Source: Alphaproteobacteria bacterium | Lineage (GTDB): Bacteria; Pseudomonadota; Alphaproteobacteria; Micavibrionales; Micavibrionaceae | Direction of reading: 5' to 3' | DNA: 64,000 nt | NCBI GenBank assembly: GCA_021776025.1 | Contig: JAJFGR010000011.1 | Location: 2,631-66,630, forward strand | In this document: positions 2,457-39,072 of the stretch, one piece after another | Layout: each line of letters starts with the position of its first letter | How positions within the stretch are numbered: the stretch's first letter is position 1 | Notes under the pieces: model-generated | The model's database searches: none | Told to the model about the DNA's origin: nothing | Seen by the model: the letters and a program-made list of their open reading frames with translations, nothing else | Made by a program: the position numbers and the translations under genes

Positions 2457-3302
2457 ATGAGCAAAATTTTTGCAGTTTTCACTCTTGTTTTATTCCTCGG
2501 CGCTATGCCCGCTTTTGCACAAAGCACCGATCCTTTGCCTGAACTCCCTGAGCCCATTCAAAATTTAGTGAGCGAAGGGGCGCAGATTCGTTATCTGGGC
2601 AAAGACAACAACATGGATGCGTGGCTGACCATCAAGAATGGCGTTGAACAATATTTCTACGTGCTTCCCGATCGCAGCGCCTTTGTAATGGGTGTAATGT
2701 TCGATAAGAGCGGAAAGCTGGTGACCGTTCAACAGGTTGACCGCCTGCGCTCACAGGGTGACACTTTACTCGATACGCTGGCCGAATTTCCTGAAGCTGA
2801 TAACGCAACAAAGAACAAGCCTTTTGAATTTCAAACCCCGGCTGAGCAGATGTTTTCAGACATTGAAAGCAGTAATTGGATTGCCTTGGGGCAACCTGGC
2901 GCGCCGGTGATGTATAGCTTCATCGACCCGCAATGCACGCATTGTCACGCTTTTATCCGTAGTCTTCAGGCCGAGAAATATTTTGAGAAGGCGCAAATTC
3001 AATTGCGGATGATTCCGGTTGGGTTTAAAGAGCAAACACGGGCACAAGCCGCGTTTTTGATCGCCTCGCCAAACCCACAAGACCGCTGGTTTAAGCATAT
3101 GGATGGTGATGAAAACGCCCTGCCCGCGAAAACAGAGATTAATCAGCAAGGCGTACAGCGCAATTTGGCGATTATGCAGTCATGGAAATTTAATGTTACG
3201 CCGATGATTATTTACCGTGGCCGCGATGGCAGCGTAAAGCTGGTCCGTGGAAAGCCTGAAGACTTGTCTGGTGTCATAGCGGATTTGGCCGCGCCGGGCT
3301 AA
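2457..3302 (+). CDS. periplasmic thiol:disulfide interchange protein, DsbC/DsbG-like
   Basis: Signal peptide MSKIFAVFTLVLFLGAMPAFAQ. Thioredoxin-type active site FIDPQCTHCH. Its 281 aa length fits an N-terminal dimerisation domain plus a Trx fold. Confidence 0.7.
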   Translation: MSKIFAVFTLVLFLGAMPAFAQSTDPLPELPEPIQNLVSEGAQIRYLGKDNNMDAWLTIKNGVEQYFYVLPDRSAFVMGVMFDKSGKLVTVQQVDRLRSQGDTLLDTLAEFPEADNATKNKPFEFQTPAEQMFSDIESSNWIALGQPGAPVMYSFIDPQCTHCHAFIRSLQAEKYFEKAQIQLRMIPVGFKEQTRAQAAFLIASPNPQDRWFKHMDGDENALPAKTEINQQGVQRNLAIMQSWKFNVTPMIIYRGRDGSVKLVRGKPEDLSGVIADLAAPG

Positions 3303-9657: not shown

Positions 9658-10869
9658 TTAAAGAAAATTCACCAAGCTAAGCTGTGAGACACTTGCAGTT
9701 ACGCGGTATGAGGCCTCGAGCTGAACTTGCAGGGTATTAATCTTAATCGCAACATCATTAATATCCGCATTCTCAACTTCATCAATTGTGTTTAAAAGGA
9801 TGTTTTGATCTCTTTCATAAGAGATTTTTATTCCGTCAATGCGGGCCCGGGCATTTTCAAGACGGAAACGGACCGTATCAAGGCCATCAATTGCATTACT
9901 GACAGAGCTGCTCAGTTCATTAAAAACTTGGAAGAAGTTATCCTTCATTTCCTGTAGTGTCGCGCCAGGAGCACCGTCAGCCAATGTTGGATCGCCGGCT
10001 GTATACGGCTCTGCATAAACATCGGCGATAGGAATAAGATTCTCATTTGTGATAAAAGATGCGGCGACCAGAATATCGCGAAACGGCTCTTCATTTGCCT
10101 GCGCAGTGTAGTCGATCTCAACAGTATCATCCACGCGAATGAAGACATCGCCGACATTTCCTGCGCTCAAAGCTGCAGAATAACCAACGATGGTATCAGT
10201 AATAGCATTTGGGTCTTGCGCTATATCTCTGCTTGTTAGTGCGCTAACCAACTCCGCGCTTGTTAAATTGGTGGCGGCCGGAAGGGTTTCGTCTTTCCAG
10301 TTTGTAATAAGTGTGGAAAGCGCGGCATCCAAAGTGCCATTATCATCATATGGCTGAGTTAAGGTATCAGAACCGCCGAGAAGATATCTGTCACCTTCTT
10401 GAACATTCAACAAGTCACCCATAAATGTGAACAAATTGCCGGCTAAATCTCTCAAGGTTTGTAGATCAACGTCCGGATCTGCCGAGTTATGACCGATCTG
10501 AGTCGTTTCAATGGCCGGCGTGAGCGGATCATCATAGACAATTACATCGCCTTTCTGATGCACACTTTCTTGCGAGAACTGGACAAGCGCGTTGGAAAAA
10601 TTTTCCGCTTGCTGCTGAAATTCTTCAATCGCTGTAAGCATTTGTTTAATTCGTCGCTCTCCGTTCTTAATGTTATCAATATATTTATCAAGCGATTGAA
10701 AATCGGCGCGCGCGCGTTTTGAAGTGAGAATGTCATTATTCAAACCGGCGAAGCTTTGGGTTTTTTTTCCTGTCGCAAGTTGCGTAGTCAGCGAATTTAA
10801 AAGCTGGTTTTGATTGTTCAGCAAATTAATGCGCGATAACGCCTGACCCAATGATGAAATGCCTGTCAT
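9658..10869 (-). CDS. flgL: flagellar hook-associated protein 3 (FlgL)
   Basis: 403 aa. The flagellin-type N-terminus (LLNNQNQLLNSLTTQLATGKK) and C-terminus (LEASYRVTASVSQLSLVNFL) are present. It starts 33 nt downstream of flgK. Confidence 0.85.
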   Translation of the reverse strand: MTGISSLGQALSRINLLNNQNQLLNSLTTQLATGKKTQSFAGLNNDILTSKRARADFQSLDKYIDNIKNGERRIKQMLTAIEEFQQQAENFSNALVQFSQESVHQKGDVIVYDDPLTPAIETTQIGHNSADPDVDLQTLRDLAGNLFTFMGDLLNVQEGDRYLLGGSDTLTQPYDDNGTLDAALSTLITNWKDETLPAATNLTSAELVSALTSRDIAQDPNAITDTIVGYSAALSAGNVGDVFIRVDDTVEIDYTAQANEEPFRDILVAASFITNENLIPIADVYAEPYTAGDPTLADGAPGATLQEMKDNFFQVFNELSSSVSNAIDGLDTVRFRLENARARIDGIKISYERDQNILLNTIDEVENADINDVAIKINTLQVQLEASYRVTASVSQLSLVNFL

Positions 10870-10902
10870 GATCTTCTCCTATTCATAAAATTCTTACAGC
10901 CT

Positions 10903-13323
10903 CTAGCGCACAGCATTTAAAAGCTCCTGAAATAACTCATCAACGGCTGTTAAAACTCTTGCAGAGGCGCTATAGGCGGTCTGTACAATAATTAAATGGC
11001 CAAGTTCTTCATCGAGGTTAACGCCCGATTCATTAAGAATTTGTGTTTGCAGCGCCTCCTGTAATGAAAATTCGTCGATAGTCCGCGCTTCCATAAGAAT
11101 GGCTTCTTGAGAATGCTCGTTGATCATTTTTTGTGAGAAATCAAGGATTGTGAGTGAGCCTAATATCCGTGTCGATATATCCGCATTAGGGCCAAGGTTG
11201 TTTTCTCTGAATGAAAGTGTCGGGATTGGGGGCGCTAGTGATGCATCAGTTTCCGAGCCATAGTTAAAACTATTTATCGGCGAAGAATCAATGATTGCAG
11301 CGCCGGACACTGCGTAGGTTCCGAACATGGCCGAAACAATATTGGCGCCGTCATCAATTGCGGCTCTGGCCGTTAGCGCAGGTGGCGCGCCGTAGCCAGC
11401 TGCGCTGGTATCAAAAGGTCCACCTGTAAATTTTATGTCGCCACCAAAATCTGGGTTATCAAAATTTGTGCCCGGACGAATACGCAAAATTCCATCCAGA
11501 GCAAAATTCACCGTATCCACAGCCAAGCCCGGAACAGCCTGAAGCTTGGCGATAAGCTCAAGATCGGTATCGCCGGGCTCCAGCGTTATACGCACGGCTT
11601 CCGCGTTCCCAACCTGCACGTCGAAATATGGATCTGTTGGCGCGATGGGCGCGCCGGCGTTATCGCTTAAACCAAAAAAGACCAAGCCTGCATCACCAAT
11701 TGACGTTGGGCCCGCGTTGGCATCAATTTCATATGATCCGCGCGTGTTAATAACCAGCTCCCCATTTGTTCCAACACTGGCCACAGCGGCTAAACCAGCG
11801 GGAACACCGGCCAAAGCAATCTCGTTGTTAATATGCGCAACAAGCTGATCAGCGGCTGTTGCCCCTGCAAAACCGTTGGCAATACTCAAATCAACCGTAA
11901 CCGTTGTTGGACCCAGGCCGGTGCGGGGCTCTTCGAAGATGATATGAAAAATATCATTGGGATTGTCCAGAGCTCCATTCGCTGATGTTACTAGAGCCGC
12001 AACATTGGCAAATGGCGTAAGATCACGCCCGCCTGTCATTGTATTTGATGAAACCAGCCCCAGCCATTCCTGCAGGTCCAAACCGCCTGTGTTCAGCAAA
12101 TCGACCTGCGTTGTTATGTCTGTGTTTTCAGCCTGTTCGAAATCTACGGCCCCAAAACCAAACTCGAGGATGCGGCGAACAACTTCATTGGAGCCAGTCG
12201 CAAGCGATGCTCCATATGTCCCATCCTTAAGAAGGCTTGGGTCATTCACGATATTGTCATTGACCTGAATGACGGCTGAAAAACCAACATATGACACGGG
12301 CGTTTCTGGAACCGTTGTCGGGTCCGGCGCTGTGTCCAACGGAATGACGCCAAAGGCGTCTGTAAATAAACGCAGACCCTGCGTTTCCATACGCAGCGCC
12401 ATTTTGTGGGCCACCTCATCAAGTTGCGCCATTTGTTTTGGAAAAGTTTCATCGCGGAGCGTTATTAATCCGCCCAGCTTACCGCCAGGTGAAAGCGTTG
12501 TTATATCTGAGGAGAATGTGGTGGTGTCATTTGGATCGCCGACAAAGACACCATTGGCAGAATCAGGATAGAAACTGGTCGCGGCAAGGGGCGTAGGATT
12601 AAACGTAAATTGCTGCGCCTTATCCGATGCGATCTCAACGCCACGGTTGGTCTGCACAACCAAAACGCCATCACCACGCTGAAAAAAACTGACCTCAATT
12701 AAACCAGATAATTCTTGAATTGCGCTATCGCGTCCATCTTCATAAAAAGCCGTTGAACGGCCCAGATTTAGATTATTCTTAACCTCATTATTCAAATCTG
12801 CAATCTGTTCCAAAAGATCATTAATGCGCGTTACGGTAGTTTGCATCTCACTTTGTGCATCATTACGAAGCGCTGAGATCAGGTCAGAGAGATCATTAAT
12901 CTTATTAGCTGTATCAGCGGCTTGGTCAATTGTAAGCGCCTGAAGGAACGCGTCTTCCGGACTGTCGGCAAGCGCTGAAAAACTACCCTGCAAACGGGCA
13001 ATTTCTGCCGCTACAGATAGCTCCTGATCTGGTGGTCCATGGAATTGGATGATTCTGTTCAGGTACGTTTGCTGTACATCCAGCTCGCCAACTGCGCTCA
13101 CCTGTGTCCAGAGATCCCGCTCCAAGTTTAAATCAACATTGCGCAAAATTGTTTCAGCGCGAACCCCGGCCGTAACACCTTGAAGTGCTTGAGCACTTTG
13201 CGGCATAATTTTCCGGGAATATCCTGGCGTACCCACATTGGCTACGTTATTGGAAATCACATCAATTTGCTGCTGCGACACGCGCAAACCGGCTAGAGCT
13301 GAGTTTAGGCTGGCGATGCCCAT
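10903..13323 (-). CDS. flgK: flagellar hook-associated protein 1 (FlgK)
   Basis: 806 aa. The N-terminus MGIASLNSALAGLRVSQQQIDVISNNVANVGTPGYSRK and the C-terminus VNLDEELGHLIIVQTAYSASARVL are canonical FlgK. Confidence 0.9.
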   Translation of the reverse strand: MGIASLNSALAGLRVSQQQIDVISNNVANVGTPGYSRKIMPQSAQALQGVTAGVRAETILRNVDLNLERDLWTQVSAVGELDVQQTYLNRIIQFHGPPDQELSVAAEIARLQGSFSALADSPEDAFLQALTIDQAADTANKINDLSDLISALRNDAQSEMQTTVTRINDLLEQIADLNNEVKNNLNLGRSTAFYEDGRDSAIQELSGLIEVSFFQRGDGVLVVQTNRGVEIASDKAQQFTFNPTPLAATSFYPDSANGVFVGDPNDTTTFSSDITTLSPGGKLGGLITLRDETFPKQMAQLDEVAHKMALRMETQGLRLFTDAFGVIPLDTAPDPTTVPETPVSYVGFSAVIQVNDNIVNDPSLLKDGTYGASLATGSNEVVRRILEFGFGAVDFEQAENTDITTQVDLLNTGGLDLQEWLGLVSSNTMTGGRDLTPFANVAALVTSANGALDNPNDIFHIIFEEPRTGLGPTTVTVDLSIANGFAGATAADQLVAHINNEIALAGVPAGLAAVASVGTNGELVINTRGSYEIDANAGPTSIGDAGLVFFGLSDNAGAPIAPTDPYFDVQVGNAEAVRITLEPGDTDLELIAKLQAVPGLAVDTVNFALDGILRIRPGTNFDNPDFGGDIKFTGGPFDTSAAGYGAPPALTARAAIDDGANIVSAMFGTYAVSGAAIIDSSPINSFNYGSETDASLAPPIPTLSFRENNLGPNADISTRILGSLTILDFSQKMINEHSQEAILMEARTIDEFSLQEALQTQILNESGVNLDEELGHLIIVQTAYSASARVLTAVDELFQELLNAVR

Positions 13324-13406: not shown

Positions 13407-13422
13407 TGCAAGGGAAATGCCA
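13407..13422 (-). promoter_or_regulatory. sigma-54 (-24/-12) promoter upstream of flgK
   Basis: The minus strand reads TGGCAT-TTCCC-TTGCA against the consensus TGGCAC-N5-TTGCW. It lies ~84 nt upstream of the flgK ATG, in the 128-nt gap after the preceding gene. Confidence 0.6.
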
Positions 13423-13451: not shown

Positions 13452-15314
13452 TTATTCTAATTCAAGGAGTTTACCCTGAAGTATCTCAGCATCGGTAATC
13501 AGTTCTTGTTCAACCATACCAGACATGAGCATTTCACGGCGCAGCGCGGCTTCATAATGGTCGCGCTGTTGCATCAATCCGATCGCTTCAAGTGAGGCAT
13601 TGATACGGTCGACATTAACCGGCTTGTCATAAAGATTGGTGTAGAAATTCGGGTTTTGATAGAGTTTTTTTGTCAGAATGTCCATCTGCGCATAATAGCT
13701 TGGATTTTCACCGACCATCTCTTCAATATTTTCATCAATTTCTGCGGCATTGGCCCCACCAACCAGTTCACGCAGCATCGTCTTCATATACGCCCAACCA
13801 GGCTCAACATCGGCAGGCGGAGCAGGAGCCTGCGCTTTCAGGGCAATCAGCTTTGTATAAGAGTTATGTGCGAGATTATTTAAAGCCATATGCTGGCGGC
13901 TTTGTTTAAAATATTTTGCGTTTTTCTTCAGCGCGTTTTCTGACGCAAACGAAAAAGCATCGGTCCAATAAAGGTTACGGGCAAGGGCAACAACGTCGGT
14001 TTCATCATCACTCAGCTCCGCATTTGTAAAATCAACATCCAGAGTCAGGGGCAGTTCAACTGTCCGCGCGTAATCAATGTCTTTGTTCACACGCAGTTGA
14101 TCAATAGCGCCGAATGGAGGGGTTACAGGGGGTACTAGAGGGGGTAGGCCATGATCACAGAGAAGTCCCAGACCGGCGTTATTATCATTTGGGTCACAGT
14201 ATATTGTTCTAAATTGTTGCAGGCGGTTTTTGAAATCGCTTTCAGGACCTAAGGCTGTGCCCATGTTAGAGCGGTTGGATTCACTCTCCATCAAAATATC
14301 ATTGAGGACCATCTGATCATGCGCGACTTTTTCTTCAACCGTGGCAAGAGAGCGTGCAAAAGATCCAATTCGGCACATTTGGTCGCTCGGATGGTAATCC
14401 TTCACTGCCTCAGCCTTCAGCTTTTGATGAAGACGCTGAACTTCCAGCTGATCTTTGGCATCGAAAAACATTCCAACCATTGCGACCTGCTGCATGGCGA
14501 TGCCAGAGAACTGCTCCGTCATAAGCTGGAGTCCCATAACATAATTATTTACGATATTATTATTTTGAGCATTAACAGCACCTGTATTGCAGGTGCTATG
14601 GGGATAAGGCGAACAGTTGCTTTCTGTGAAGGTGTTCAAATTTGTGCCGGGAAGATCACCCCCGCCTGGCGCGGATAGCACTTTAATAACTGCCGGGCTT
14701 TGATGGTTTCTGGCATCGCTGGCAATGTCGCGGCTGTAAAAAGCAACCTGCACGGCGTTTGATTTATCGCCTGAGGGCCGCAATCCCGTTTCTTCGAAAA
14801 GGCCGGCCCAGTCTGTGCGGGTTTCAATATTTTGCCCAGAAGCACGAATTTCAATATTCGCAAAAGGCTCAGAATCCTGGCCTTTCACAGAAACAGCGCC
14901 TGTGCGCGCATCAATTTTAAGCAAAAGTGAAAGCGTGCGCTTTTCTTCACTGATTGAGAAGTCATAGATCACGTTCGAAGCAATATTTTCGAAGTCTTTC
15001 GGTACAGGAATGTTGAGATAGCCATGCTGGTCGACTACGGATGTTATCTGCGACATATCTGCGCTATCAAAAAGAATGCTGTACACAACTATGGCGCCGG
15101 GTTCAAAGCCGGAGAGCGCGGCAAAATATTTTTCCGGCGCTGTCTTTTTTTCAAACAATGATGCGTTGGCCGAATATCCGCTGAGCCCTAAAAGAAGACA
15201 AGCGCAAAACAAGCATATTGAGCCCGCGGCTAAAAGCGCGCTTTTTCTACTGTGCTTATTTCGCTTTAGAATCATAAAATTGTTCCATTTATTACTGCTG
15301 TGAGCTGAGCTCAT
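13452..15314 (-). CDS. secreted protein, paralog 3 of a three-member family of unknown function; carries an extra ~230-aa N-terminal domain
   Basis: 620 aa with a signal/anchor sequence. It shares with the two upstream genes the blocks FFDAKDQLEVQR...KDYHPS..C.IGS, FRTIYCDPNDNNAGLGLLCDH, VNKDIDYARTVE and KKLYQNPNFYTNLYDKPVNVDR. The start may be 15314 or 15275. Confidence 0.6.
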   Translation of the reverse strand: MSSAHSSNKWNNFMILKRNKHSRKSALLAAGSICLFCACLLLGLSGYSANASLFEKKTAPEKYFAALSGFEPGAIVVYSILFDSADMSQITSVVDQHGYLNIPVPKDFENIASNVIYDFSISEEKRTLSLLLKIDARTGAVSVKGQDSEPFANIEIRASGQNIETRTDWAGLFEETGLRPSGDKSNAVQVAFYSRDIASDARNHQSPAVIKVLSAPGGGDLPGTNLNTFTESNCSPYPHSTCNTGAVNAQNNNIVNNYVMGLQLMTEQFSGIAMQQVAMVGMFFDAKDQLEVQRLHQKLKAEAVKDYHPSDQMCRIGSFARSLATVEEKVAHDQMVLNDILMESESNRSNMGTALGPESDFKNRLQQFRTIYCDPNDNNAGLGLLCDHGLPPLVPPVTPPFGAIDQLRVNKDIDYARTVELPLTLDVDFTNAELSDDETDVVALARNLYWTDAFSFASENALKKNAKYFKQSRQHMALNNLAHNSYTKLIALKAQAPAPPADVEPGWAYMKTMLRELVGGANAAEIDENIEEMVGENPSYYAQMDILTKKLYQNPNFYTNLYDKPVNVDRINASLEAIGLMQQRDHYEAALRREMLMSGMVEQELITDAEILQGKLLELE

Positions 15315-16683
15315 TCTCTAGTTTTTTCTGTAGGTCGACGAGAGTAAGCTCCAATAGAACAGACATATTGGCTTCAGTGCGCAGATAACTTTTAAACAGA
15401 TCAAATTTCTGCATCAAACCGATAGCCTGCAGCGCAACTTTTTTACGCTCTACGTTGGCTGGCTTATCATAGAGGTTGGTGTAGAAGTCCGGGTTTTGAT
15501 AGATTTTTTTCGTCAAAACTTCCATTTGTGCGTGATAGCTAGGCCCGATTTCATCATTCGCATCATTCATACCCAGCAAATGCAGAACATCATTTGGCGG
15601 GCCGTTTGTGTCACTCACACCCAGCTCTGTCAAAATTGCTTCGAGAAAATCTCTAGAACCAGCTGTCCCGGCCGATTTCATAGATGTAATCGCGTTAAAA
15701 GTGTTTTCTGCGACGCTTCGTTTTGCTAGAAGCGCTCGTGAATTCATGTATAGGTCACGCGTAGCACCAAGGGAGTCGCCTGTTTCCTGCTGTCTTAAGT
15801 TTGGGTTAAATTTTGTTGCTGGCGTAATGCGCTGGAAAACAAGATCACCGTACAAATTATTTGCCAGCGCCAAAACTTCTTCTTCGTTATGCGTTAATGT
15901 TGTATCGGTAAAATCAATATCTAAAGTCCAAGGATATTCAACCGTGCGGGCGTAATCGATATCTTTGTTCACGCGATGTTGATCAATAGCGCCGAATTCA
16001 TCGCCGGGGGCTTGGTCATGATCACAGACAAGACCCAAACCGGCGTTATTATCACTTGGGTCACAAAATTTCGTTCTGAATTGTTGCAAGCGGTTTTTAA
16101 AATCCGCGTCCGGACCGGAAGCCGACGATGTATTGGCATTTCCAAGACCTCGGTCCTGAGAACGTTGGCTCATAACATGCGCGTTCAGTTCCGCTTTACG
16201 TTCTGATGCGGCTAGGCTTCTAACGCTTGTGCCGAACTCACACATGCCTGTGCTGGGGTGATAGTCTTTGTGCGCGCGCGCGCGGATTGTTTGCAGAACG
16301 CGCTGGGTTTCCATCTGGTGCTTGGCATCAAAAAATGTGCCAATTATTTCAGTTTGCATCATGGCAACAGCAGAAAGCTGATCGGCCATAAGCATCATAG
16401 CCGGGAGAAGATTATCTTCCCAAAATATAGACACAATCCAAGTTCGGTGCGCTGTGAATTCGTAGGTTACAAACTCTTTGATCAGTGTTCTTGTTTGCGG
16501 CCAGTTAACTGTAACTGAAGTTGTTACACAGGCCACACATTGAGCATACACACCACAACAACATGACGCACTGGCTTGGCGCGTGGGCACCATAAGCACG
16601 AATAAAAGCGTCACAACCCAAAATAGGGTTTTAACTTTTTGTTTTATGTTTAGCGCTGTTAACATTTTTATATCAATCATCAT
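15292..16683 (-). CDS. secreted protein, paralog 2 of the same family
   Basis: 463 aa. Signal peptide followed by a Cys cluster (SCCCGVYAQCVACV). Carries the same conserved blocks (FFDAKHQMETQR, KFCDPSDNNAGLGLVCDH, KKIYQNPDFYTNLYDKPANVER). Confidence 0.6.
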   Translation of the reverse strand: MMIDIKMLTALNIKQKVKTLFWVVTLLFVLMVPTRQASASCCCGVYAQCVACVTTSVTVNWPQTRTLIKEFVTYEFTAHRTWIVSIFWEDNLLPAMMLMADQLSAVAMMQTEIIGTFFDAKHQMETQRVLQTIRARAHKDYHPSTGMCEFGTSVRSLAASERKAELNAHVMSQRSQDRGLGNANTSSASGPDADFKNRLQQFRTKFCDPSDNNAGLGLVCDHDQAPGDEFGAIDQHRVNKDIDYARTVEYPWTLDIDFTDTTLTHNEEEVLALANNLYGDLVFQRITPATKFNPNLRQQETGDSLGATRDLYMNSRALLAKRSVAENTFNAITSMKSAGTAGSRDFLEAILTELGVSDTNGPPNDVLHLLGMNDANDEIGPSYHAQMEVLTKKIYQNPDFYTNLYDKPANVERKKVALQAIGLMQKFDLFKSYLRTEANMSVLLELTLVDLQKKLENELSSQQ

Positions 16684-18056
16684 CTATTCAAATTTTTATC
16701 AATGTCTTTAAAGCTCATGCGCAAGCGTGAAGACAGCAATACTGACATCACCATTTCTTGGCGTAGCTGGCTTTCATAAATTGCCCGGTCCAGCATTAAA
16801 TCAATAGCTTTAAGGGCGGTACCTATCCGTTTTACATTGGCGGGCTTATCATAAAGATTCGCGTAAAAGTCAGGGTTTTGGTAAATTTTCTTGGCGAGAA
16901 TCTCGAGCTGTGAATAATAGCTGAAATCTATATATTGGGTTCCACCATCTAGTTCATAGCCATCTCTAAGCCCCATATATTGGTCTATTTCTTCTTCAGG
17001 AATGCCCAGCTCTGTCATCACGGCGCCTAAAAACATATACGTATTTGTTGTCGCCGGATTCTGCGGGTCCAATAAACCACCCACGCTCCCTAAGCTTTTT
17101 AAAGCCACAATACTGTTGAAAGAATTTTCAGCCACGGCGCGTTTTGCCGCAACGGAACGCAGCGTTAGATAAAGCCCAGGCTTACTATCATCAAGAAGAC
17201 TGGTACGGCTAATATCGCGGAAAAGAATGTTATGGCCATAAAGGTTGTTCCCTAAAGCTTGTATATCAATTTCATCTGGAGAGCCAACGTCGAGGGGTCT
17301 GGATATATCAAGGATCCGGCGGTTTTCGACAGCCCGTGTATAATCAATGTCGATATTAACGCGCTCTTTTGCCACGGCTAGGGAAGTGCCCGCTTTCGTA
17401 GCGGCATCTCGTTTAGGCAGACAGACCGTACTCAAACCTGTACCGGTACCGGCGCCCAGCCAATTGTTGTCTCTTTCATCACAATAAACTTCGGTAAATT
17501 GAGTCCAGCGCGCTATTTTATCCGATAATGCGCTTGGCGCGCCGGCCATATTACGGCGGCCAAGATGGCGGGCGAGTTGGCGCTGGCCCATGACTTGCGC
17601 ATTATAACGGGCAACGCTTTCGGAGTGGCCCAAAGACCGAACATTTGTTCCGAAAGCACAAAAGGTTGTGCTGGGTTGATAATCTTTATGTGCCTGAACC
17701 TGCAGTTCTTGAAAAAGCCGCTGGGTTTCGAGTTGGTGTTTTGCATCAAAAAACTTGCCGATAATCATTGTTTGCTGCATTGCCACGGCAGACATCTGTT
17801 CGGTGAAAAGCTGCAACGCCGGTAAAATTTGCTCTAAAAAGAACGTGTTTGTGAGCCAGTCACGATGCTGATTAAACTCTTGCGCTATATGGTTTGTAAT
17901 ATCTATTCTGCCTTGTTCGTGCGCAGCAGGTAACGGACAAGCAAAGGCATGGGCGGGTTTTACGGGAATTACAGAGACAGAGGCAAAGATGAAAAGTGCA
18001 CCTAAAACGGTGCAAAGTGTTTGTCCAAAAAACCGAATGGAAAAAACCTTTTTCAT
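16680..18056 (-). CDS. secreted protein, paralog 1 of the same family (possible IcmX/TraW-type component, unverified)
   Basis: 458 aa with a signal peptide ending VKPAHA. Carries the blocks FFDAKHQLETQRLFQELQVQAHKDYQPSTTFCAFGT, EVYCDERDNN and KKIYQNPDFYANLYDKPANVKR. It has a 4-nt ATGA overlap with paralog 2. Confidence 0.6.
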   Translation of the reverse strand: MKKVFSIRFFGQTLCTVLGALFIFASVSVIPVKPAHAFACPLPAAHEQGRIDITNHIAQEFNQHRDWLTNTFFLEQILPALQLFTEQMSAVAMQQTMIIGKFFDAKHQLETQRLFQELQVQAHKDYQPSTTFCAFGTNVRSLGHSESVARYNAQVMGQRQLARHLGRRNMAGAPSALSDKIARWTQFTEVYCDERDNNWLGAGTGTGLSTVCLPKRDAATKAGTSLAVAKERVNIDIDYTRAVENRRILDISRPLDVGSPDEIDIQALGNNLYGHNILFRDISRTSLLDDSKPGLYLTLRSVAAKRAVAENSFNSIVALKSLGSVGGLLDPQNPATTNTYMFLGAVMTELGIPEEEIDQYMGLRDGYELDGGTQYIDFSYYSQLEILAKKIYQNPDFYANLYDKPANVKRIGTALKAIDLMLDRAIYESQLRQEMVMSVLLSSRLRMSFKDIDKNLNR

Positions 18057-18287
18057 ACCTCTTTATATAGCCCCGTATTATTTTATAAATAACCGCCCTG
18101 ACTGCTCTTTTTTGAAAATACAGACAGAAAATTTGCTCACTTCTTTTTATTGTATCACAAGCTTTTACAAAAAGGCACGTTTCAAAATGTGAAAAATTTC
18201 AAACATCGCTGTTGCCGCGCTTGTGTCCAAGCCTATTTTACTACAGTATAGTACAGTTATTTTATCACATGTAGGCGTTAAATCAGC

Positions 18288-18989
18288 ATGGCTGCCAAAA
18301 AACAAAAAGCTCAAAAGACCGCTCAGCGGACTGCTAAAGATGAAAAAAGTGATGGTGCTGGTGAAGACAATACCGGTCTTGGCAAAGTTGTCATTCGTAA
18401 TGAATTTTACCGTGATGGCTATCGTAGTCTTTTGCGGCTATCCTTACTGCAAGGCCTTATTATACTTGCTCTTTTAGGAGCTATGTATTTCGTCATTCAG
18501 ACCCACCAGCCGGAAAATCGTTATTTTGCGACGACCGAGGATGGCCGCCTTGTGCCGATGGTTGCTTTAAATGAGCCAAATTTAAGTACGCCGGCGCTGA
18601 TGTCATGGGTCGCACAGGCCGCAACAGAAGTGATGACCTTCGGTTTTAATGACTATCGGCGGCGATTGCAGGAATCTTCCAGAACCTTTACCCGCCGCGG
18701 CTGGGAAAGCTTTACTGGCGCTTTGCAGCGTTCACGGATTATTGAAATGGTTGAAGCCAATCAACAGGTCGTCACGGCTGCCCCGCAAGGTGCACCAATT
18801 GTGATTTCAGAAGGGCTTGTTGCCGGGCGCTATCAATGGCAGGTGCAGCTGCCGCTTATTCTGACCTATCAATCCGGGGCGCGCACACGAACCGACAAAC
18901 TTCTGGTTACGATCGTTATTGTACGGGTTCCGAGACTAGAAAGCCCCAATGGCGTCGGTATCGAACAATGGGTTGCCGTACCCCGATAG
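18288..18989 (+). CDS. icmL: DotI/IcmL (TraM-like) type IVB inner-membrane protein
   Basis: 233 aa. A basic N-terminus and one TM helix precede a periplasmic domain (ALMSWVAQAATEVMTFGFNDYRRRLQESSRTFTRRGWESF...) typical of the IcmL family. It comes first in the icmL-K-E-G order. Confidence 0.8.
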   Translation: MAAKKQKAQKTAQRTAKDEKSDGAGEDNTGLGKVVIRNEFYRDGYRSLLRLSLLQGLIILALLGAMYFVIQTHQPENRYFATTEDGRLVPMVALNEPNLSTPALMSWVAQAATEVMTFGFNDYRRRLQESSRTFTRRGWESFTGALQRSRIIEMVEANQQVVTAAPQGAPIVISEGLVAGRYQWQVQLPLILTYQSGARTRTDKLLVTIVIVRVPRLESPNGVGIEQWVAVPR

Positions 18990-19156
18990 ATCTGGCTTAA
19001 AGAGTGCGAATTCCTGTTTATTATGCGCTATCATGGGTGAGCATTTAAAACCCGTAACCGTAAGACCTGTGTGTTTTTCCCTTTTTTACCTATTTGAATG
19101 GTGACAGTGATTTTTTATCTGTCTATCCTAAAATTTGGTACTAACAGTGCGATCGA

Positions 19157-20245
19157 ATGTTATTCTACATGCGTATCTTAAAACAAACGGCCAGAGACTG
19201 GCGTTCACTCTCTTTAAGCACCTGCTTTGCGGGGTTTTTGCTAATGTCTTTTGGTGCTTATGCGCAGCTTCCTTCTTTACCTGGCGAAGAATCACCGCCG
19301 GGCGCTAATGCGGATGCACTCCCATCCGGGCCAAGCAAAGCCTTTGATTTTGATAATAGCGATGATGCTTTGGGTTTTGAAGAATCAGCAGAAGAACGAA
19401 AAGAGCAGGCCCGTGATGAGGCTTTTGATGCCGCGATTCAGGGGCTTTTGCCTTTACGGCCAAAAGAGATACGCACTCTGCTTGAGCGTTTTGACCGAAC
19501 GCAAGAATCTGTTGAAACGCCTGTTTACCCAAATCCAAAGCCTGAAGTGGTTGTACAAAATATAAGCCTTGATCCCGGCGCGGAACCTGTTGTGGTCAAG
19601 TTGGCCTACGGACATGTGACAACCATTAATTTTCTAGATTCTTCCGGGGCTCCTTGGCCTGTCCAAGATATAAGCTGGGCCGGAAGTTTTGAGGTTATAG
19701 AGGTTGAACAAGGTGAGGATGGTGACGAAGATGGTAGCGTAAGCTTTACGCATATGTTCCGCATTTCACCACAGTCTGAATTTGCCTATGGAAACATGTC
19801 TATTACTATGACAGGGCTGATGACGCCTGTCATTATAACGCTTGAAACGAATAGGGAAATTGTGCATTACCGTTTTGATGCAGTTATTCCTGAATTTGGA
19901 CCGCTGGCCGAAGCGCCTATCATAGAATCGGGAATTTCTACAACCGCGGGAGATCAGGATCTGTCTTCTATTCTTGAGGGGATTATACCGGCCAATGCCG
20001 CGCGCCTAAACGTTTCAGGCGCAGACGGTCGAACCTCTGCTTATCGTTATAATGAATCCGTTTATGTCAGAACGCCCTTAACACTCTTATCGCCAGGTTG
20101 GAGTAGTTCGGCAGCTTCGGCAGATGGGACCCGCGTTTATCAAATAAGTGATGCGCCTGTTTTATTATTGTCTGACCGGGGCCGGATGGTGCGCGCGAAG
20201 CTCTCTGACCGTATTGATATATTAGAGGATATTGTGGATGAGTGA
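19157..20245 (+). CDS. icmK: DotH/IcmK (TraN-like) outer-membrane core protein
   Basis: 362 aa with a signal peptide. Carries LRPKEIRTLLERFDRTQESVETP and VVKLAYGHVTTINFLDSSGAPWPVQDISW. The start may be Met5 (19169). Confidence 0.8.
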   Translation: MLFYMRILKQTARDWRSLSLSTCFAGFLLMSFGAYAQLPSLPGEESPPGANADALPSGPSKAFDFDNSDDALGFEESAEERKEQARDEAFDAAIQGLLPLRPKEIRTLLERFDRTQESVETPVYPNPKPEVVVQNISLDPGAEPVVVKLAYGHVTTINFLDSSGAPWPVQDISWAGSFEVIEVEQGEDGDEDGSVSFTHMFRISPQSEFAYGNMSITMTGLMTPVIITLETNREIVHYRFDAVIPEFGPLAEAPIIESGISTTAGDQDLSSILEGIIPANAARLNVSGADGRTSAYRYNESVYVRTPLTLLSPGWSSSAASADGTRVYQISDAPVLLLSDRGRMVRAKLSDRIDILEDIVDE

Positions 20246-21497
20246 TGATCTCGATGATGATCTGAGTATGGATGATTCTTTCGATGATTTTGAGAAGAAA
20301 GAGGGTGGTACGCTTGGCGATCTCATGCGTGACAGTCCTCTTTTTAAAATCGGGGCTATTGTTGGCGCCGCAGTTCTGCTTTTCGTTTTAATCTCTGTAT
20401 TTAGTGGCGACAAAACACCGCTTCAAGAATCCTATGTTGGCGCTGCGCCTGATATAACGGCAACCCCCGGCACAGAAGAGGCATCCCCTGCCTATGTTCA
20501 AGCCATAGAGGAAGAAAATGAACGCTCTATTGAAGAGGCTTTTCAAACAGGGGACAGCTCATTGCCGGTTCCAATCTCTCCGCCTGTAGGCATTGTCAGC
20601 CTACCGGAAGACGAAGAAGAGGCAGAAGATCCACTGCAACGTTGGCGACGCCTGCAAGAGGAGCGTCTGGAGCGGGAAATTCAGGCACGAGAAAATTTGC
20701 CGGAGGACACTGGCGCCGGCGATGCGGCGCGTCAAGAAGCCATTCAGCGGCTTGCCGATGCTATGGGCCAGCAAATGTCTACCATCCTTGAGGTTAAGGG
20801 AGAGTCCAGCCTGTCCAGCTTAAAGATGACGGATCCTGATTTTCTTGCCCAGCTGGCAGAAGCAAGGGCAGAGGCAGAAGAATTCGCTGAATTTCTTGAA
20901 GACGGAGAGCTTTCTGAGGATGTTACAGGTGAGGTTCTTCTTCCTGCTGGTGAGATTCTATATGCACAACTTTTAACGGAAGCGAACACGGATGCGCCAG
21001 GGCCGATTTTGGCAGAAATCATGTCCGGGCCGCTTAAAGGCAGCCGAATTTTGGGGACATTTGAAGAGCAGAATGAGTTGCTAACCTTAAATTTTGACAC
21101 GATTGTCTATGAAGAGGAAAGCCTTAGCATTGATGCGGTTGCATTGGATCCGGGAACTACGCTTGCCGGTATGGCCACCGAGGTTGACCATCGTTATTTA
21201 AAGCGCGTGATCCTGCCGGCAGCGGCCAGCTTTATTGAAGGTTTTGCCGGTGCTATCGGTAAAACCGCGCAAGTTACCGTTGTTACAGACGGAGGGACTG
21301 TTGTTGATGGCGAAGAGGAGCCAGATAATACTGAAGAGGTCGCTATCGGTATACAAGAGATGGGAGAGGAATTGGGTGAAATTCTTGATGATCTGGCGGA
21401 AGAAACCGAAGTTCTGGTCCGCATAGCCGCAGGAACACCGATTGGTGTTTTGTTCCTCGAGCCCGTCACTAAGGATGAAGAAGCAGAAGAACTATAG
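20238..21497 (+). CDS. icmE: DotG/IcmE (TraO, VirB10/TrbI-like) core protein, short form
   Basis: Start trimmed to the ATG at 20238. An acidic N-terminus and one TM helix precede a C-terminal TrbI-like block (LLPAGEILYAQLLTEANTDAPGPILAEIMSGPLKGSRILG...). Overlaps the icmK stop by 8 nt. Confidence 0.75.
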   Translation: MSDDLDDDLSMDDSFDDFEKKEGGTLGDLMRDSPLFKIGAIVGAAVLLFVLISVFSGDKTPLQESYVGAAPDITATPGTEEASPAYVQAIEEENERSIEEAFQTGDSSLPVPISPPVGIVSLPEDEEEAEDPLQRWRRLQEERLEREIQARENLPEDTGAGDAARQEAIQRLADAMGQQMSTILEVKGESSLSSLKMTDPDFLAQLAEARAEAEEFAEFLEDGELSEDVTGEVLLPAGEILYAQLLTEANTDAPGPILAEIMSGPLKGSRILGTFEEQNELLTLNFDTIVYEEESLSIDAVALDPGTTLAGMATEVDHRYLKRVILPAAASFIEGFAGAIGKTAQVTVVTDGGTVVDGEEEPDNTEEVAIGIQEMGEELGEILDDLAEETEVLVRIAAGTPIGVLFLEPVTKDEEAEEL

Positions 21498-23014: not shown

Positions 23015-24820
23015 ATGACGGTAATTTATAATAAGAAATATGGTAGGGGTAATGTGGCTGCGTTTTTCAAAAAACTGAGCGGCATTTCGCTTTTTTCTGT
23101 TTTAATTTCAGTGCTTTATAGTTCTTCCGCCTCTGCGCAGGATGTTAGTGACCTTGCAGAGAACATGGTGACCTCTGTAGAGCAGCTTCCCGCGCTTGTT
23201 GCGGCGATCGCTTATATTCTGGGTCTTATACTCGGCATTACCGGTATTCTTAAAATTAAAGAACATGTTGAGAACCCAACGCAGGTCCCTTTACGTACAG
23301 GGGTCATTCGCTTGTTTATTGGGGGCACTCTATTCGCCCTGCCTATCGTCTATGAAGCAGTTTTCCAAACAGTTGGCAACAACCCGCTGTCTTGGGATAA
23401 CGGTTCGATAGTAAACGATGTTTCGGGCTTTTTTGGAAATATCGGTGGAGGGCTTGGCATAGACCTTAATGGTATTCTGAACAGCATTTTGGCTTCCATT
23501 GAAGAGGTTCCGGCCCTTATTTCTGCCGTGGCCTATCTTCTCGGTCTTGTGATTGTTATTCAGGGACTTTTAAAAATCAAAGACCATGTTGAGATGCCAG
23601 ATGGTCAGGGCGCGACCCCTCTTAAAGAAGGCGTTGTGCGGCTTCTTGTTGGTGGCGCTTTGTTTGCTCTGCCGAGCATTTATAACGCGATGTTTGATGC
23701 TGTGGGCGGAAACGGTCTTGGGATTATTGGCAATATTACATCTATTCTGGGCAGTGCTGGTTTCCTTTATTCTTCATATGCACAAGGCTTGTGTAACCCG
23801 GTTGCATCTACTGTTGGTGGCGTAGGCGCTTTTTTTGGGCTGGGTGGCCCAAGCACCGGACAGCTTATGTGTGGCATTCTTTTACATGCCGGGGCCTTCC
23901 CTGCATTCTTGACAGCTTGTAGCTATGTTATTGGCCTTGTGCTTGGCCTCTGGGGTATTTTCAAACTTCGTGACCATGTTTTGAACCCGCAACAAACGCA
24001 AATCTGGGAAGGGGTTTCACGCCTACTAGCTGGCGGCTTTTTCTTTGCCTTGCCCGTTGTTGTCGAGGTTGCCAGAAGCACGCTGGGAGCACCAGCGATG
24101 ACCGTAGCTGCGGGCTCTCCCATCAGCCTTAGAGGCTATAATGATGGTAGCGGTGGCGGTATTGGTGGCTTTTTCGCTAATATATTAAGCAGCGGTGGCT
24201 GTGGTGGCGCAGGCGGTATTGGTGGCTTTTTCGGTCTTGGTGGCACCGGTGGCGGCAGTGGCTTAGGCCTGGACCAAATGCTTGTCTGTATGATGGGCGA
24301 TATTATGGGACCACTCCATGTCGTATTGAATTTCTTCGCTTTTGTTGCCGGAATGATTTTACTGATGATCGGTATATCACGGCTTATAAAAAGCGCACAG
24401 GACGGTGCGCGCGGACCGGGCGGTATTGGTACAGCTATGACGTTTGTAACCGGCGCGGCGCTTATTTCTTACAATGAACTGGTGCGGGCTTTTTCAACAA
24501 CATTGGTTGGCAGTCCCGTGACAGCGACCTTTGCAAAAATGCAGTATAATGTTTGTGCGGGTGGCGGCACGTGCGCTGAGTCTACGGCGGCTCATTCAAC
24601 CATTAGTGCAATTTTACAATTTGTAATCATCGTTGGCCTCATAAGCTTCGTTCGTGGTATATTTATTATCCGCGGCGTTGCAGAGGGCAACCAACAGTCT
24701 TCGATCATGGCGGGAGTCACCCATATTGTTGGGGGGGCGCTAGCCGTGAACTTAGGCCCGGTTATCAATGCGGTTCAGTCCACATTGGGAATTGGGCAAT
24801 TTGGTATTGCATTCTCGTAA
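23015..24820 (+). CDS. polytopic membrane protein made of five tandem DotE/DotP (IcmC/IcmD)-like two-helix modules
   Basis: 601 aa with a signal peptide (…SSSASAQ). The modules fall at aa 55-121, 162-231, 292-358, 431-497 and 529-592. Modules 1-3 keep the core L.KIK(E/D)HV.NP.Q.PL..G..RL..GG.LFALP. Gly-rich GGFF linkers join the modules. The gene occupies the icmC slot. Confidence 0.6.
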   Translation: MTVIYNKKYGRGNVAAFFKKLSGISLFSVLISVLYSSSASAQDVSDLAENMVTSVEQLPALVAAIAYILGLILGITGILKIKEHVENPTQVPLRTGVIRLFIGGTLFALPIVYEAVFQTVGNNPLSWDNGSIVNDVSGFFGNIGGGLGIDLNGILNSILASIEEVPALISAVAYLLGLVIVIQGLLKIKDHVEMPDGQGATPLKEGVVRLLVGGALFALPSIYNAMFDAVGGNGLGIIGNITSILGSAGFLYSSYAQGLCNPVASTVGGVGAFFGLGGPSTGQLMCGILLHAGAFPAFLTACSYVIGLVLGLWGIFKLRDHVLNPQQTQIWEGVSRLLAGGFFFALPVVVEVARSTLGAPAMTVAAGSPISLRGYNDGSGGGIGGFFANILSSGGCGGAGGIGGFFGLGGTGGGSGLGLDQMLVCMMGDIMGPLHVVLNFFAFVAGMILLMIGISRLIKSAQDGARGPGGIGTAMTFVTGAALISYNELVRAFSTTLVGSPVTATFAKMQYNVCAGGGTCAESTAAHSTISAILQFVIIVGLISFVRGIFIIRGVAEGNQQSSIMAGVTHIVGGALAVNLGPVINAVQSTLGIGQFGIAFS

Positions 24821-29137: not shown

Positions 29138-29797
29138 ATGAGTGATACACCCAAAGACGAAGATGATGGCATCACACTCAGCGTGGAGATTATGGACAGG
29201 GCTGAACGCAAGGCTTTGAAAGAAAAAGCCAAGGCAGAAGCCGCTGCGAAAAAAGTGGAACCCACACAAGATGAGATAGAAGCCGCCTTAGCAACCAGCA
29301 AATTGGCAAACGCCCAAAAAGTAAAACGCAAAAGAATATTCAAAGGCGGGGGGGCTCTGGTCGGCCTTGCGCTTTTTGGGTGGCTGGTGAATTACATGTT
29401 TACCCCTTACAGGGCCGGCATAACCTTTGGTATTTGTAAAACTTTCCTCGAGCTTAATCTGCAATTCCCGCAAGACATGCGGATCAGCACTGTTGATGAT
29501 TTTGGTGAATATGTGCGGATTTGGTATACGCAGCTTGATGCTTTTGGTGAATACCGGATGGAGAATATTCAATGTCACTTCCGTGCTGATGAGGTTACAG
29601 GGGCCGCCATCGATAAAATCACAATAAATCGCCGTGAAGTTGACCCGGAGCGCATTACAAAGTTTAACAAAATACTTCCGGTTATCTTAGCAAGCCCGCC
29701 GGATTTGACTATTCCTTATCCACTTCCAGATAGTTTAGAGAGTTTGCAGATCGATACGAATGCATTTCGTTTTCAGTTGAATTTGCGGAGGCGGTAA
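29138..29797 (+). CDS. hypothetical bitopic membrane protein (last gene of the T4BSS block)
   Basis: 219 aa. A Lys/Glu-rich N-terminus and one TM helix (GALVGLALFGWLVNYMF) precede a ~130-aa C-terminal domain. It starts 14 nt after icmB. Confidence 0.5.
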   Translation: MSDTPKDEDDGITLSVEIMDRAERKALKEKAKAEAAAKKVEPTQDEIEAALATSKLANAQKVKRKRIFKGGGALVGLALFGWLVNYMFTPYRAGITFGICKTFLELNLQFPQDMRISTVDDFGEYVRIWYTQLDAFGEYRMENIQCHFRADEVTGAAIDKITINRREVDPERITKFNKILPVILASPPDLTIPYPLPDSLESLQIDTNAFRFQLNLRRR

Positions 29798-37940: not shown

Positions 37941-39017
37941 TTAGTGGATTGTGTCTTTATCTTCGGCGGTAAATTCACCATTTGGAAAGATCATTTCAGC
38001 CAGCCTTGCATCCCGGAAGGGAACGCTTTGAACACGCACAACTTTCAAGTCATAGAGAATTTGCATGAAATGAGCCTGATTGATGGGATCGGTTAACCCA
38101 GCATAGAGCGGATCGCTTAAAACTTCCGGTCCCTGCCCTTGCAGATACGCGGTTCTGTCAGGCAAGCATGAAAGCATCTCTATGCCTATTGGTGTTAGTT
38201 TTTTCCGACCAAAACCTTCGCATTCTTCGTAATCTTGCACAACGCCGTCAAGATAATTCAAAACTTCGTGATCGCAGCTGTTAACGCGGCGTTCATCGCG
38301 AAACCATTGTGAAAAGGCAGCGGCTAACGCTTTGCCGTTAAATAGTGACGCAGGATCGCGCTCCAGATAACCAGAAAAATGCATGGCGATATCGCCATCT
38401 TCAGAGCCAATAAGGTGACGCCACAGACTTCCTTCGCCTTCACCGCGCAATTCCCATGCAACCAAAACGGCCAATGTATCGAGATCTGCGGCGCGGGTGC
38501 GCTCCAACATCATCACCGCTTCGGGGCCATATTCCGTATCAAAGGCGCCGTGACGTTTTTCCTGCCATACATCGCGCAAGGCACGGATCATGGAAACTAG
38601 GACGGCATTTTTGAAATATTCGGAAGCGCTCAATGCGCTGGTGACCAGATCCTGATCATCTAAAACGATAAGCTTTTCAGGGACGTCTAGGTGAAAGTCC
38701 GGACCGCCCAGTGCCTCCAGCGCTAAAGACCAACCATTCTTTTCGGCTTCCTTGAGCATTGCGCGCGCGCTAGGGCTGGTAGAAAGCTGTGCAATTGCCC
38801 ACGACAGAACCGCATGTTTGTCGTCTTGAGGAATCGCTACATTATTTTCAGAAGATAAATCCGTAAAGGCCCATGAATCACATGAAGATTCACAAAATGC
38901 CTTTATAGTGGGCAAGATAGACGGTTGTTTTTGAAAACTTACAGGCTCAAACTCTGCTTCGGCACGGACATCCGCAGCACTCATATCTTTGTTGTTTCGT
39001 GAATCATGATCGCTCAT
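37941..39017 (-). CDS. hypothetical protein; paralog of the upstream gene
   Basis: The ORF-track entry (to 39497) overlaps the upstream gene, so it was trimmed to the ATG at 39017 (MSDHDSRNNKD…). It shares MIRALRDVWQEKRHGAF, VLVAWELRGEG and AAAFSQWFRDERRVNSCDHEVLNYLD with the neighbour. Confidence 0.6.
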   Translation of the reverse strand: MSDHDSRNNKDMSAADVRAEAEFEPVSFQKQPSILPTIKAFCESSCDSWAFTDLSSENNVAIPQDDKHAVLSWAIAQLSTSPSARAMLKEAEKNGWSLALEALGGPDFHLDVPEKLIVLDDQDLVTSALSASEYFKNAVLVSMIRALRDVWQEKRHGAFDTEYGPEAVMMLERTRAADLDTLAVLVAWELRGEGEGSLWRHLIGSEDGDIAMHFSGYLERDPASLFNGKALAAAFSQWFRDERRVNSCDHEVLNYLDGVVQDYEECEGFGRKKLTPIGIEMLSCLPDRTAYLQGQGPEVLSDPLYAGLTDPINQAHFMQILYDLKVVRVQSVPFRDARLAEMIFPNGEFTAEDKDTIH

Positions 39018-39072
39018 GTCACACTCCCTGTTACGCAGATCAAAAAGCTGCTTTTGAAACTGTTGCGTTCCC

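Follow-up and report, generated by a model that had tools for sequence, protein, structure and literature searches.

What are the products of three tandem genes that lie inside a type IVB secretion system (T4BSS) locus of an alphaproteobacterium of the family Micavibrionaceae and have no family name? The genes, here called A, B and C, form an array within a stretch of 64,000 nucleotides (contig JAJFGR010000011.1, positions 2,631 to 66,630, assembly GCA_021776025.1; "the window"). An initial annotation made from the sequence alone had proposed that they might supply the IcmX/TraW-type component otherwise missing from the locus, without being able to confirm any homology. We conclude, with a probability of roughly 70%, that A, B and C are Sec-exported, very divergent TraW/IcmX proteins (the VirB5 or "B5" class) of type IVB secretion systems. 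This assignment, and with it the earlier proposal, is supported by the match of their predicted fold to IcmX, by a profile similarity to TraW that runs over the full length, by the spacing of three cysteines, by adjacency to icmL, and by an empty TraW slot elsewhere in the locus; the fold and profile statistics are moderate. The array and the parts of its products are laid out in the window as follows, lengths being given in amino acids (aa) and genes as called open reading frames (ORFs).

16680..18056, minus strand: gene A, the first gene of the array, 458 aa, A-type, from the ORF call.
15292..16683, minus strand: gene B, a 463-aa ORF (462 aa as database entry P0001), B-type.
13452..15314, minus strand: gene C, the terminal gene of the array, a 620-aa ORF, C-type.
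14679..15128, minus strand: tandem immunoglobulin (Ig)-like beta-sandwich region of gene C, residues ~63-212, not found in A or B.
13458..14585, minus strand: conserved helical, Cys-bearing, TraW/IcmX-like core of gene C, residues ~244-619.
16560-16575 region: predicted mature N-terminus of B, which starts SCCCGVYAQCVAC.

Comparison of the three products with one another gives BLASTP identities of 38-43% across ~380 aa for the A/B/C pairs (E 5e-64 to 1e-99), a similarity far beyond chance, and judged by their sequences they are true, ancient paralogs. All four of the shared motif blocks originally listed are recovered in the A/B/C alignment, as are three conserved cysteines (A 133/192/212; B 148/207/220; C 314/373/386). 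In an alignment of 90 family sequences these cysteines remain invariant, and together with a D-Y-x-P motif they are among its 8 invariant columns; by region, conservation is highest in the C-terminal helices (0.66) and stands at 0.43 in the middle domain. Each product also begins with what heuristics identify as a single hydrophobic segment followed by an AxA site (AHA37, ASA39 and ANA51 in A, B and C), in agreement with the signal peptides first assigned to them, and the heuristic scan found no further transmembrane-like segment beyond this N-terminal one.

The predicted structures point to IcmX. The AlphaFold2 (AF2) model of A, with a mean predicted local distance difference test score (pLDDT) of 80.8 and a predicted TM-score (pTM) of 0.67, comprises the signal peptide, a 74-residue helix (residues 51-124), a second helix, a loop-rich mixed middle domain that bears the cysteines, and a 53-residue C-terminal helix. 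In the model of C (pLDDT 83.9), the extra N-terminal domain noticed at the outset folds as two tandem Ig-like beta-sandwiches (DSSP strands within residues 63-212), after which the family core follows; the N-terminal helix measures 64-74 residues in the A and C models. Searched with Foldseek against 350,542 PDB chains, the A model places chain 9ngy_AP1 at rank 1 (E 0.019, probability 1.00), with the next match at E 0.48, and the C model returns the same chain at E 2.1e-3 (probability 1.00) as the sole non-Ig match near the top; the alignments span 266 columns for both. Entry 9ngy is the DotA-IcmX protochannel, and since DotA is its chain FP1 (1048 aa), AP1 is IcmX. IcmX has been described as a 466-aa protein with a signal peptide, an N-terminal helix, an extended domain and C-terminal helices, which forms a VirB5-like pentamer on DotA (10.1101/2025.06.23.660953). 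The Ig-like region of C has matches of its own, to 8bl6 (E 3.2e-4) and to the Lap adhesin repeats of 6xi3 (E 4.2e-4) in Foldseek, and its N-terminal domain to 6xi3 again in a PDB profile search (E 1.7e-4).

A link at the level of sequence profiles leads to TraW, which belongs with VirB5, TrwJ and IcmX to one class of pentameric proteins (for TraW of plasmid R64; PMC12624023, PMC12857230). On the Martelella plasmid pMM259, a 369-aa protein occupies the TraW slot, two genes upstream of DotA/TraY, and the hidden Markov model (HMM) of the family core matches it at E 2.6e-5 in two collinear segments; relatives of this protein carry the PF28212 domain, as does IncI1 TraW. Profile comparison with IcmX/TraW had been suggested as a check on the initial annotation, and in hhalign the family core aligns with the alphaproteobacterial TraW group (A5) over 308 collinear columns at a score of 43.1 and E 1.9e-4 (whole family: E 8.5e-4, 308 columns). 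Negative controls scored far lower, at 19.1 for a reversed profile and 16-22.9 for 14 block-shuffles, and the positive control, in which two PF28212 subgroups were aligned against each other, reached 44.2.

The cysteines add a signature to this similarity. A C-x59-C-x13-C arrangement, that is, spacings of (59,13), occurs in 77/90 family members, and 33/36 enteric TraW sequences have (59,14), a correspondence that was noticed after the fact; an ETQR...C motif is likewise common to the family and enterobacterial TraW in the hhalign alignment. A further group of cysteines lies just behind the signal peptide. The Martelella protein has such a motif immediately after cleavage (AEA↓ACSCGG, the arrow marking the end of the signal peptide), and alphaproteobacterial TraW (C25/C27) shares it with the short paralogs of our family, 147/239 of which carry two or more cysteines no further than 15 residues from the site of predicted cleavage (as in AYA↓ICCAECPDSDC and AEA↓ICCSGCNC); no cysteine lies near that site in 64/68 C-types. 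The CCC/CxxC cluster that had been pointed out in B is thus real and forms part of a family-wide feature. Reading these post-signal-peptide cysteines as lipoprotein sites was considered and rejected, since most members lack a lipobox context; they may instead form a disulfide ring or a metal site.

The position of the array within the locus is also informative. The window belongs to a chromosome, close to its replication origin (rho, mnmE, gidA/B, parA/B, hemE/H, leuS), and its Dot/Icm-like locus spans ~2.4-29.8 kb. The first part of the locus runs through a DsbG/TrbB-like oxidoreductase, DotD, DotC, DotB, a TcpQ-domain protein, a flgL-like gene and flgK to the array in the order C-B-A; beyond the array, and divergent from it, follow IcmL, IcmK, DotG, DotF, a fusion of DUF6750 and a TraQ-like region, DotN, DotO and a 219-aa ORF.

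18288..21497, plus strand: icmL/dotI (PF11393, E 4e-67), icmK/dotH (PF12293, E 4e-76) and a dotG/icmE-like gene (TrbI, E 8e-9).
18057..18287, no strand: divergent intergenic region separating A from icmL and presumably holding the promoter of the array.

In IncI1 plasmids traW comes after traU-traV; the window has housekeeping genes after DotO and the 219-aa ORF (29138-29797, plus strand), so the TraW slot is empty. The IncI-type order traU(DotO)-traV-traW-traX-traY ends here at the 219-aa ORF, and an aldo-keto reductase and MltA stand where TraW, TraX and DotA would be.

The family is large and has escaped naming. Scans of A, B and C against Pfam, NCBIfam and PHROGs gave no match (NCBIfam at E<=1; the local Pfam copy being one without PF28212), and hence no match to an unrelated, well-characterised family, which had been put forward as the outcome that would speak against the T4BSS reading. 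PDB sequence searches with profiles of 3 and 90 sequences found no match to the core, and tblastn of A against 72,556 plasmids found none either. A profile search retrieved 111 unnamed proteins of uncultured Alphaproteobacteria in two length classes, an exhaustive search of representatives at least 1,281 clusters at 50% identity (809 at E<=1e-30), and a scan of GTDB species representatives 291 relatives, from which 78 loci were returned. We conclude that the family is a very divergent TraW/IcmX branch missed by current curated models; IcmX itself is known to evolve fast (PMC11338181). Our literature search found no description of the A/B/C family or of arrays of IcmX/TraW paralogs. T4BSS have been noted earlier in Micavibrionales, in seven marine metagenome-assembled genomes (MAGs; PMC9418006), and the genome paper of M. 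aeruginosavorus ARL-13 reports no type IV secretion system (PMC3189940).

Synteny was surveyed by ORF calling and BLAST in the 78 loci, which are species-level and all come from MAGs labelled Micavibrio, Alphaproteobacteria or Rhodospirillales, with a few labelled "Pseudobdellovibrionaceae"; the last label appears on alphaproteobacterial MAGs because NCBI taxonomy files Micavibrio under Bdellovibrionota. The divergent arrangement with icmL that was seen in the window recurs in 71/78 loci, so that linkage of the array to T4BSS genes in related genomes, another check suggested earlier, is borne out. The remaining seven comprise one locus with icmL adjacent and the family ORF running off the contig end (L014), five truncated upstream by the contig, and L015. 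This last locus (JADLAT010000021.1, 9845-18311) is the only one in which the array and flgK-flgL stand among housekeeping genes (SecB, a response regulator, an M16 peptidase).

Array length varies, and array order is conserved. Among 58 complete arrays, five genes are present in 27, three in 20, four in 10 and six in 1, in the order of one or more A-types, one or more B-types and a single C-type (A, A', B, B', C). In the five-gene arrays, the gene at a given position matches the reference paralog of that position in 25-26/27 cases, and the paralogs are related as ((p1,p2),(p3,p4),p5); of the genes in the window, A lies equally far from p1 and p2 and B equally far from p3 and p4, and the counterpart of C is p5. 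Orthology therefore follows array position, and the duplications are ancient, ordered and maintained, which bears out the early impression that they were not recent. The same maintenance of position-specific orthogroups argues that the paralogs are non-redundant. The initial annotation was also right to call three paralogs unusual for IcmX, given 3-6 tandem copies here and a single copy in known systems.

The gene models themselves needed one correction. The three consecutive minus-strand genes of 458, 463 and 620 aa first described are present in the ORF call; gene A has the Shine-Dalgarno sequence AAGAGG, and P0001 is identical to the product of gene B from M2 onward. Gene C probably starts at M14 (nucleotide (nt) 15275) to give a product of 607 aa, because its closest homologs measure 603-608 aa and the M14 version keeps a normal signal peptide. 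As to the two overlapping junctions reported earlier, the 4-nt A/B overlap (ATGA) stands, reducing to 1 nt if B begins at its second ATG as in P0001; the 23-nt B/C overlap is probably an artefact of choosing the longest ORF, and with the M14 start it becomes a gap of ~16 nt.

Several results weigh against the TraW/IcmX assignment. The Foldseek E-values are weak in absolute terms and the TM-scores are low (0.24-0.34); a low TM-score is expected when a monomer model is compared with an in-situ pentamer, yet it limits the weight of the fold evidence. The hhalign probability is just 24-47%, and the enterobacterial TraW alignment taken alone is not significant against the family (E 0.48). Legionella IcmX is not among the matches of the family profile or of the PDB sequence search, and the precomputed Pfam column lacks PF28212 on all 111 family members, while TraW matches do show it. 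No DotA/TraY turned up when the window and all loci, fetched flanks included, were searched by tblastn with two DotA queries, and L015 has an array with flgKL and no T4BSS gene within ~10 kb. Narrower comparisons gave little: hhalign of the family against a single TraW is not significant (E 0.24), its N-terminal half against enterobacterial TraW reaches E 0.054 and aligns just the ETQR...C motif, and the family HMM, run on every ORF of the T4BSS loci from Bosea, Piscirickettsia, IncI1 and Acidovorax, finds nothing significant.

The absence of DotA has a bearing on the alternative that survives best. DotL and DotM are missing from the 64-kb window along with DotA, and as all three are also absent from the fetched flanks, they must lie at a second T4BSS locus. 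Looking past the window for DotA led no further, the FIST protein having no recorded match and the LemA-like protein occurring on short contigs alone. A true single-copy IcmX/TraW could sit there with DotA, as it does beside DotA in Legionella and on the Martelella plasmid, leaving A, B and C as a T4BSS-linked, lineage-specific periplasmic or surface module of extra adhesins or scaffold layers; the lack of PF28212 annotation on family members would fit such a module. We hold this to be unlikely. The homology to TraW is full-length and collinear and includes the Cys signature, so that the proteins would be B5-class paralogs even so; IcmX is the best structural match for both the A and the C model; and the strictly kept place next to icmL speaks for a structural component of the core.

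Far less probable is a role of A, B and C in predation as Sec-secreted toxins or free adhesins whose genes merely lie beside those of a secretion machine unrelated to them. Signal peptides, the adhesin-type Ig-like domains of the C-types and the many secreted proteins employed in the predatory lifestyle of Micavibrio (PMC3189940) would all suit such a role, but the Pfam, NCBIfam and PHROG scans show no catalytic or toxin domain, the long-kept order of the orthogroups and the strong conservation of the C-terminal helices are typical of a structural subunit and not of a fast-turnover effector, and the homology to TraW remains to be accounted for.

A flagellar role had been offered as a fallback in the initial annotation, on account of the genes that follow the array.

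9658-13323, minus strand: flgK and flgL-like genes, directly downstream of the array and nested in the T4BSS locus.
13407..13422, minus strand: sigma-54 type -24/-12 motif TGGCATTTCCCTTGCA, 83 nt upstream of flgK and the sole copy in the window.

The FlgK of the window is bona fide (TIGR02492, 257 bits against a cutoff of 171). Using a strict sigma-54 motif (TGGCA[CT]-N5-TTGCA), we found a site upstream of flgK in 55/56 loci, where background would predict ~0.007 per window scanned, and in 0/75 icmL-array intergenic regions. In at least five loci (L025, L059, L078, L081, L084) the array lies within the T4BSS and flgKL is lacking. Given this separate promoter and these arrays, flgKL is its own flagellar-type transcription unit within the locus, and TGGCATTTCCCTTGCA sets the limit of the array's transcription unit on its downstream side. 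A periplasmic accessory role for A, B and C in the flagellum, alongside FlgK and FlgL, is thus largely refuted. In its favour, 56 loci have flgK and flgL after the array and on its strand, and in L015 the two genes accompany it away from T4BSS genes; against it, the array has no such promoter of its own and persists without flgKL, no flagellar family is matched in Pfam or NCBIfam, and fold and profile favour TraW/IcmX. A flagellar hook-junction operon is nonetheless kept at this T4BSS position across many species.

A different motif lies on the icmL side.

18171-18183, array orientation: motif GAAACGTGCCTTT, 115 nt upstream of the A start codon.

At two mismatches or fewer, GAAACGTGCCTTT occurs in 25/71 icmL-array intergenic regions, against 63 matches in total in 2.96 Mb of locus sequence, and it may be a candidate regulator site or promoter element for the array, for icmL or for both.

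Taking A, B and C as TraW/IcmX proteins, we propose the following mechanism. The three proteins would be exported to the periplasm, where their invariant cysteines would be oxidised, possibly with the aid of a protein encoded at the edge of the T4BSS locus.

2457..3302, plus strand: DsbG/TrbB-like thiol:disulfide interchange protein (NF008657 DsbG, 117.5 bits, E 5e-34; thioredoxin-like Pfam matches).

From its similarity and location, this protein is a plausible and possible folding factor for the Cys-containing paralogs, a role to which that of IncI1 TrbB is presumably analogous. The long N- and C-terminal helices would mediate oligomerisation atop the DotA/TraY pentamer on the central axis, as in Legionella IcmX, and the paralogs would make up the distal, closed section of the translocation channel, one that would extend upon contact with a target. 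Most likely they would co-assemble, as a mixed cap or as stacked layers, with the C-type placing its two Ig-like domains outside, toward the target (prey or host) cell; the presence of Ig-like domains in the terminal paralog suggests such an outward-facing contact function. By analogy with the IcmX pentamer, and speculatively, the N-terminal cysteines of the short paralogs would gather at its N-terminal helix bundle.

In a more specific and doubtful version of this arrangement, there would be one symmetry-broken pentameric cap, composed of 2 A : 2 B : 1 C in three-gene genomes such as the present one and, after subfunctionalisation, of one each of A, A', B, B' and C in five-gene genomes, in which the single C projects the Ig-like adhesin domains and the N-terminal Cys cluster sits at the apex, yielding a prey- or host-piercing tip that would have no counterpart in Legionella or in conjugative T4BSS. 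Alternatively, homopentamers stacked in gene order could form a long extracellular conduit.

Some further features of the window and of the loci compared with it deserve mention. A 601-aa protein of the T4BSS locus (23015-24820, plus strand) has an N-terminal DUF6750 and a C-terminal TraQ (IcmC/DotE)-like region and looks like two small inner-membrane T4BSS components fused into one; the ORF is kept in related loci at ~550-700 aa. Two putative DUF6782 metallopeptidase ORFs (37941-39497 and 39073-40434, minus strand) are called with an overlap of ~425 nt and are probably adjacent paralogous genes of which the downstream one has an over-extended start. In Acidovorax, the gene in the TraW position was considered as a relative and rejected, as it has neither a signal peptide nor any similarity. 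On Acidovorax carolinensis pACP3.1 (L088, 3665-6098), two tandem hypothetical genes of ~400 aa give non-significant family-HMM matches (E 0.6 and 2) in the N-helix and Cys regions, and might be another divergent TraW/IcmX-like pair.

These findings bear on a channel that has only lately come into view. IcmX with DotA was recently shown to form the gated central channel of Dot/Icm, the question now being how that channel reaches a target cell and opens into it. The array constitutes a natural experiment in this respect, being a large unannotated family in which an IcmX/TraW-class subunit has been duplicated into three to five position-specific paralogs, one of them fused to Ig-like domains of adhesin type, and the T4BSS that contains it is a conserved feature of Micavibrio-like Alphaproteobacteria, the cultured relatives of which are predators of other bacteria. 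Our assignment gives an identity to a core component of these T4BSS that had lacked annotation, and it suggests that a channel tip can be built from different subunits and adapted to its target. Should the tip prove heteromeric, it would make target recognition by type IVB systems, and any part that such a system may play in bacterial predation, easier to approach.

Among known systems, Legionella pneumophila IcmX (PDB 9ngy) resembles the array proteins in size (466 aa, against ~460 aa here), in having a Sec signal peptide, a long N-terminal helix, a loop-rich extended middle and C-terminal helices, and in being encoded in a Dot/Icm-type locus. It differs in that sequence similarity is undetectable and the TM-score is ~0.3, and in that icmX is a single-copy gene beside dotA, whereas here tandem paralogs stand beside icmL and one of them has two extra Ig-like domains. 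The array proteins have three invariant cysteines and an N-terminal Cys motif, and we read the shared Cys signature as a putative tie between alphaproteobacterial TraW-slot proteins, IncI1 TraW and IcmX.

TraW of IncI1 plasmids (R64 type) and the alphaproteobacterial TraW-slot proteins are alike to the array proteins in profile, in the ETQR...C motif and in Cys spacing, with the post-signal Cys motif shared by the alphaproteobacterial branch. TraW is named a lipoprotein in a UniRef entry, whereas the array proteins have AxA sites of the signal-peptidase-I type; it is single-copy after traU-traV, and the array is multi-copy on the other side of icmL; and TraW systems are conjugative, whereas the array lies in a chromosomal locus. 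VirB5/TrwJ of type IVA systems is of the same functional class as IcmX/TraW and likewise forms a pentamer on VirB6/DotA (PMC12624023, PMC12857230), but it is much smaller and lacks the extended domain (10.1101/2025.06.23.660953), and direct comparison of VirB5 with the array proteins gave nothing significant.

Finally, tandem expansion of type IV secretion components is known from Rickettsiales, where Ehrlichia has four VirB6 paralogs (cited in PMC12857230). By analogy, drawn from the literature, the two cases are alike as maintained tandem duplications of a central-channel or surface component in a cell-associated bacterium; in Rickettsiales it is VirB6 of a type IVA system that has been multiplied, and here it would be the B5-class protein of a type IVB system.

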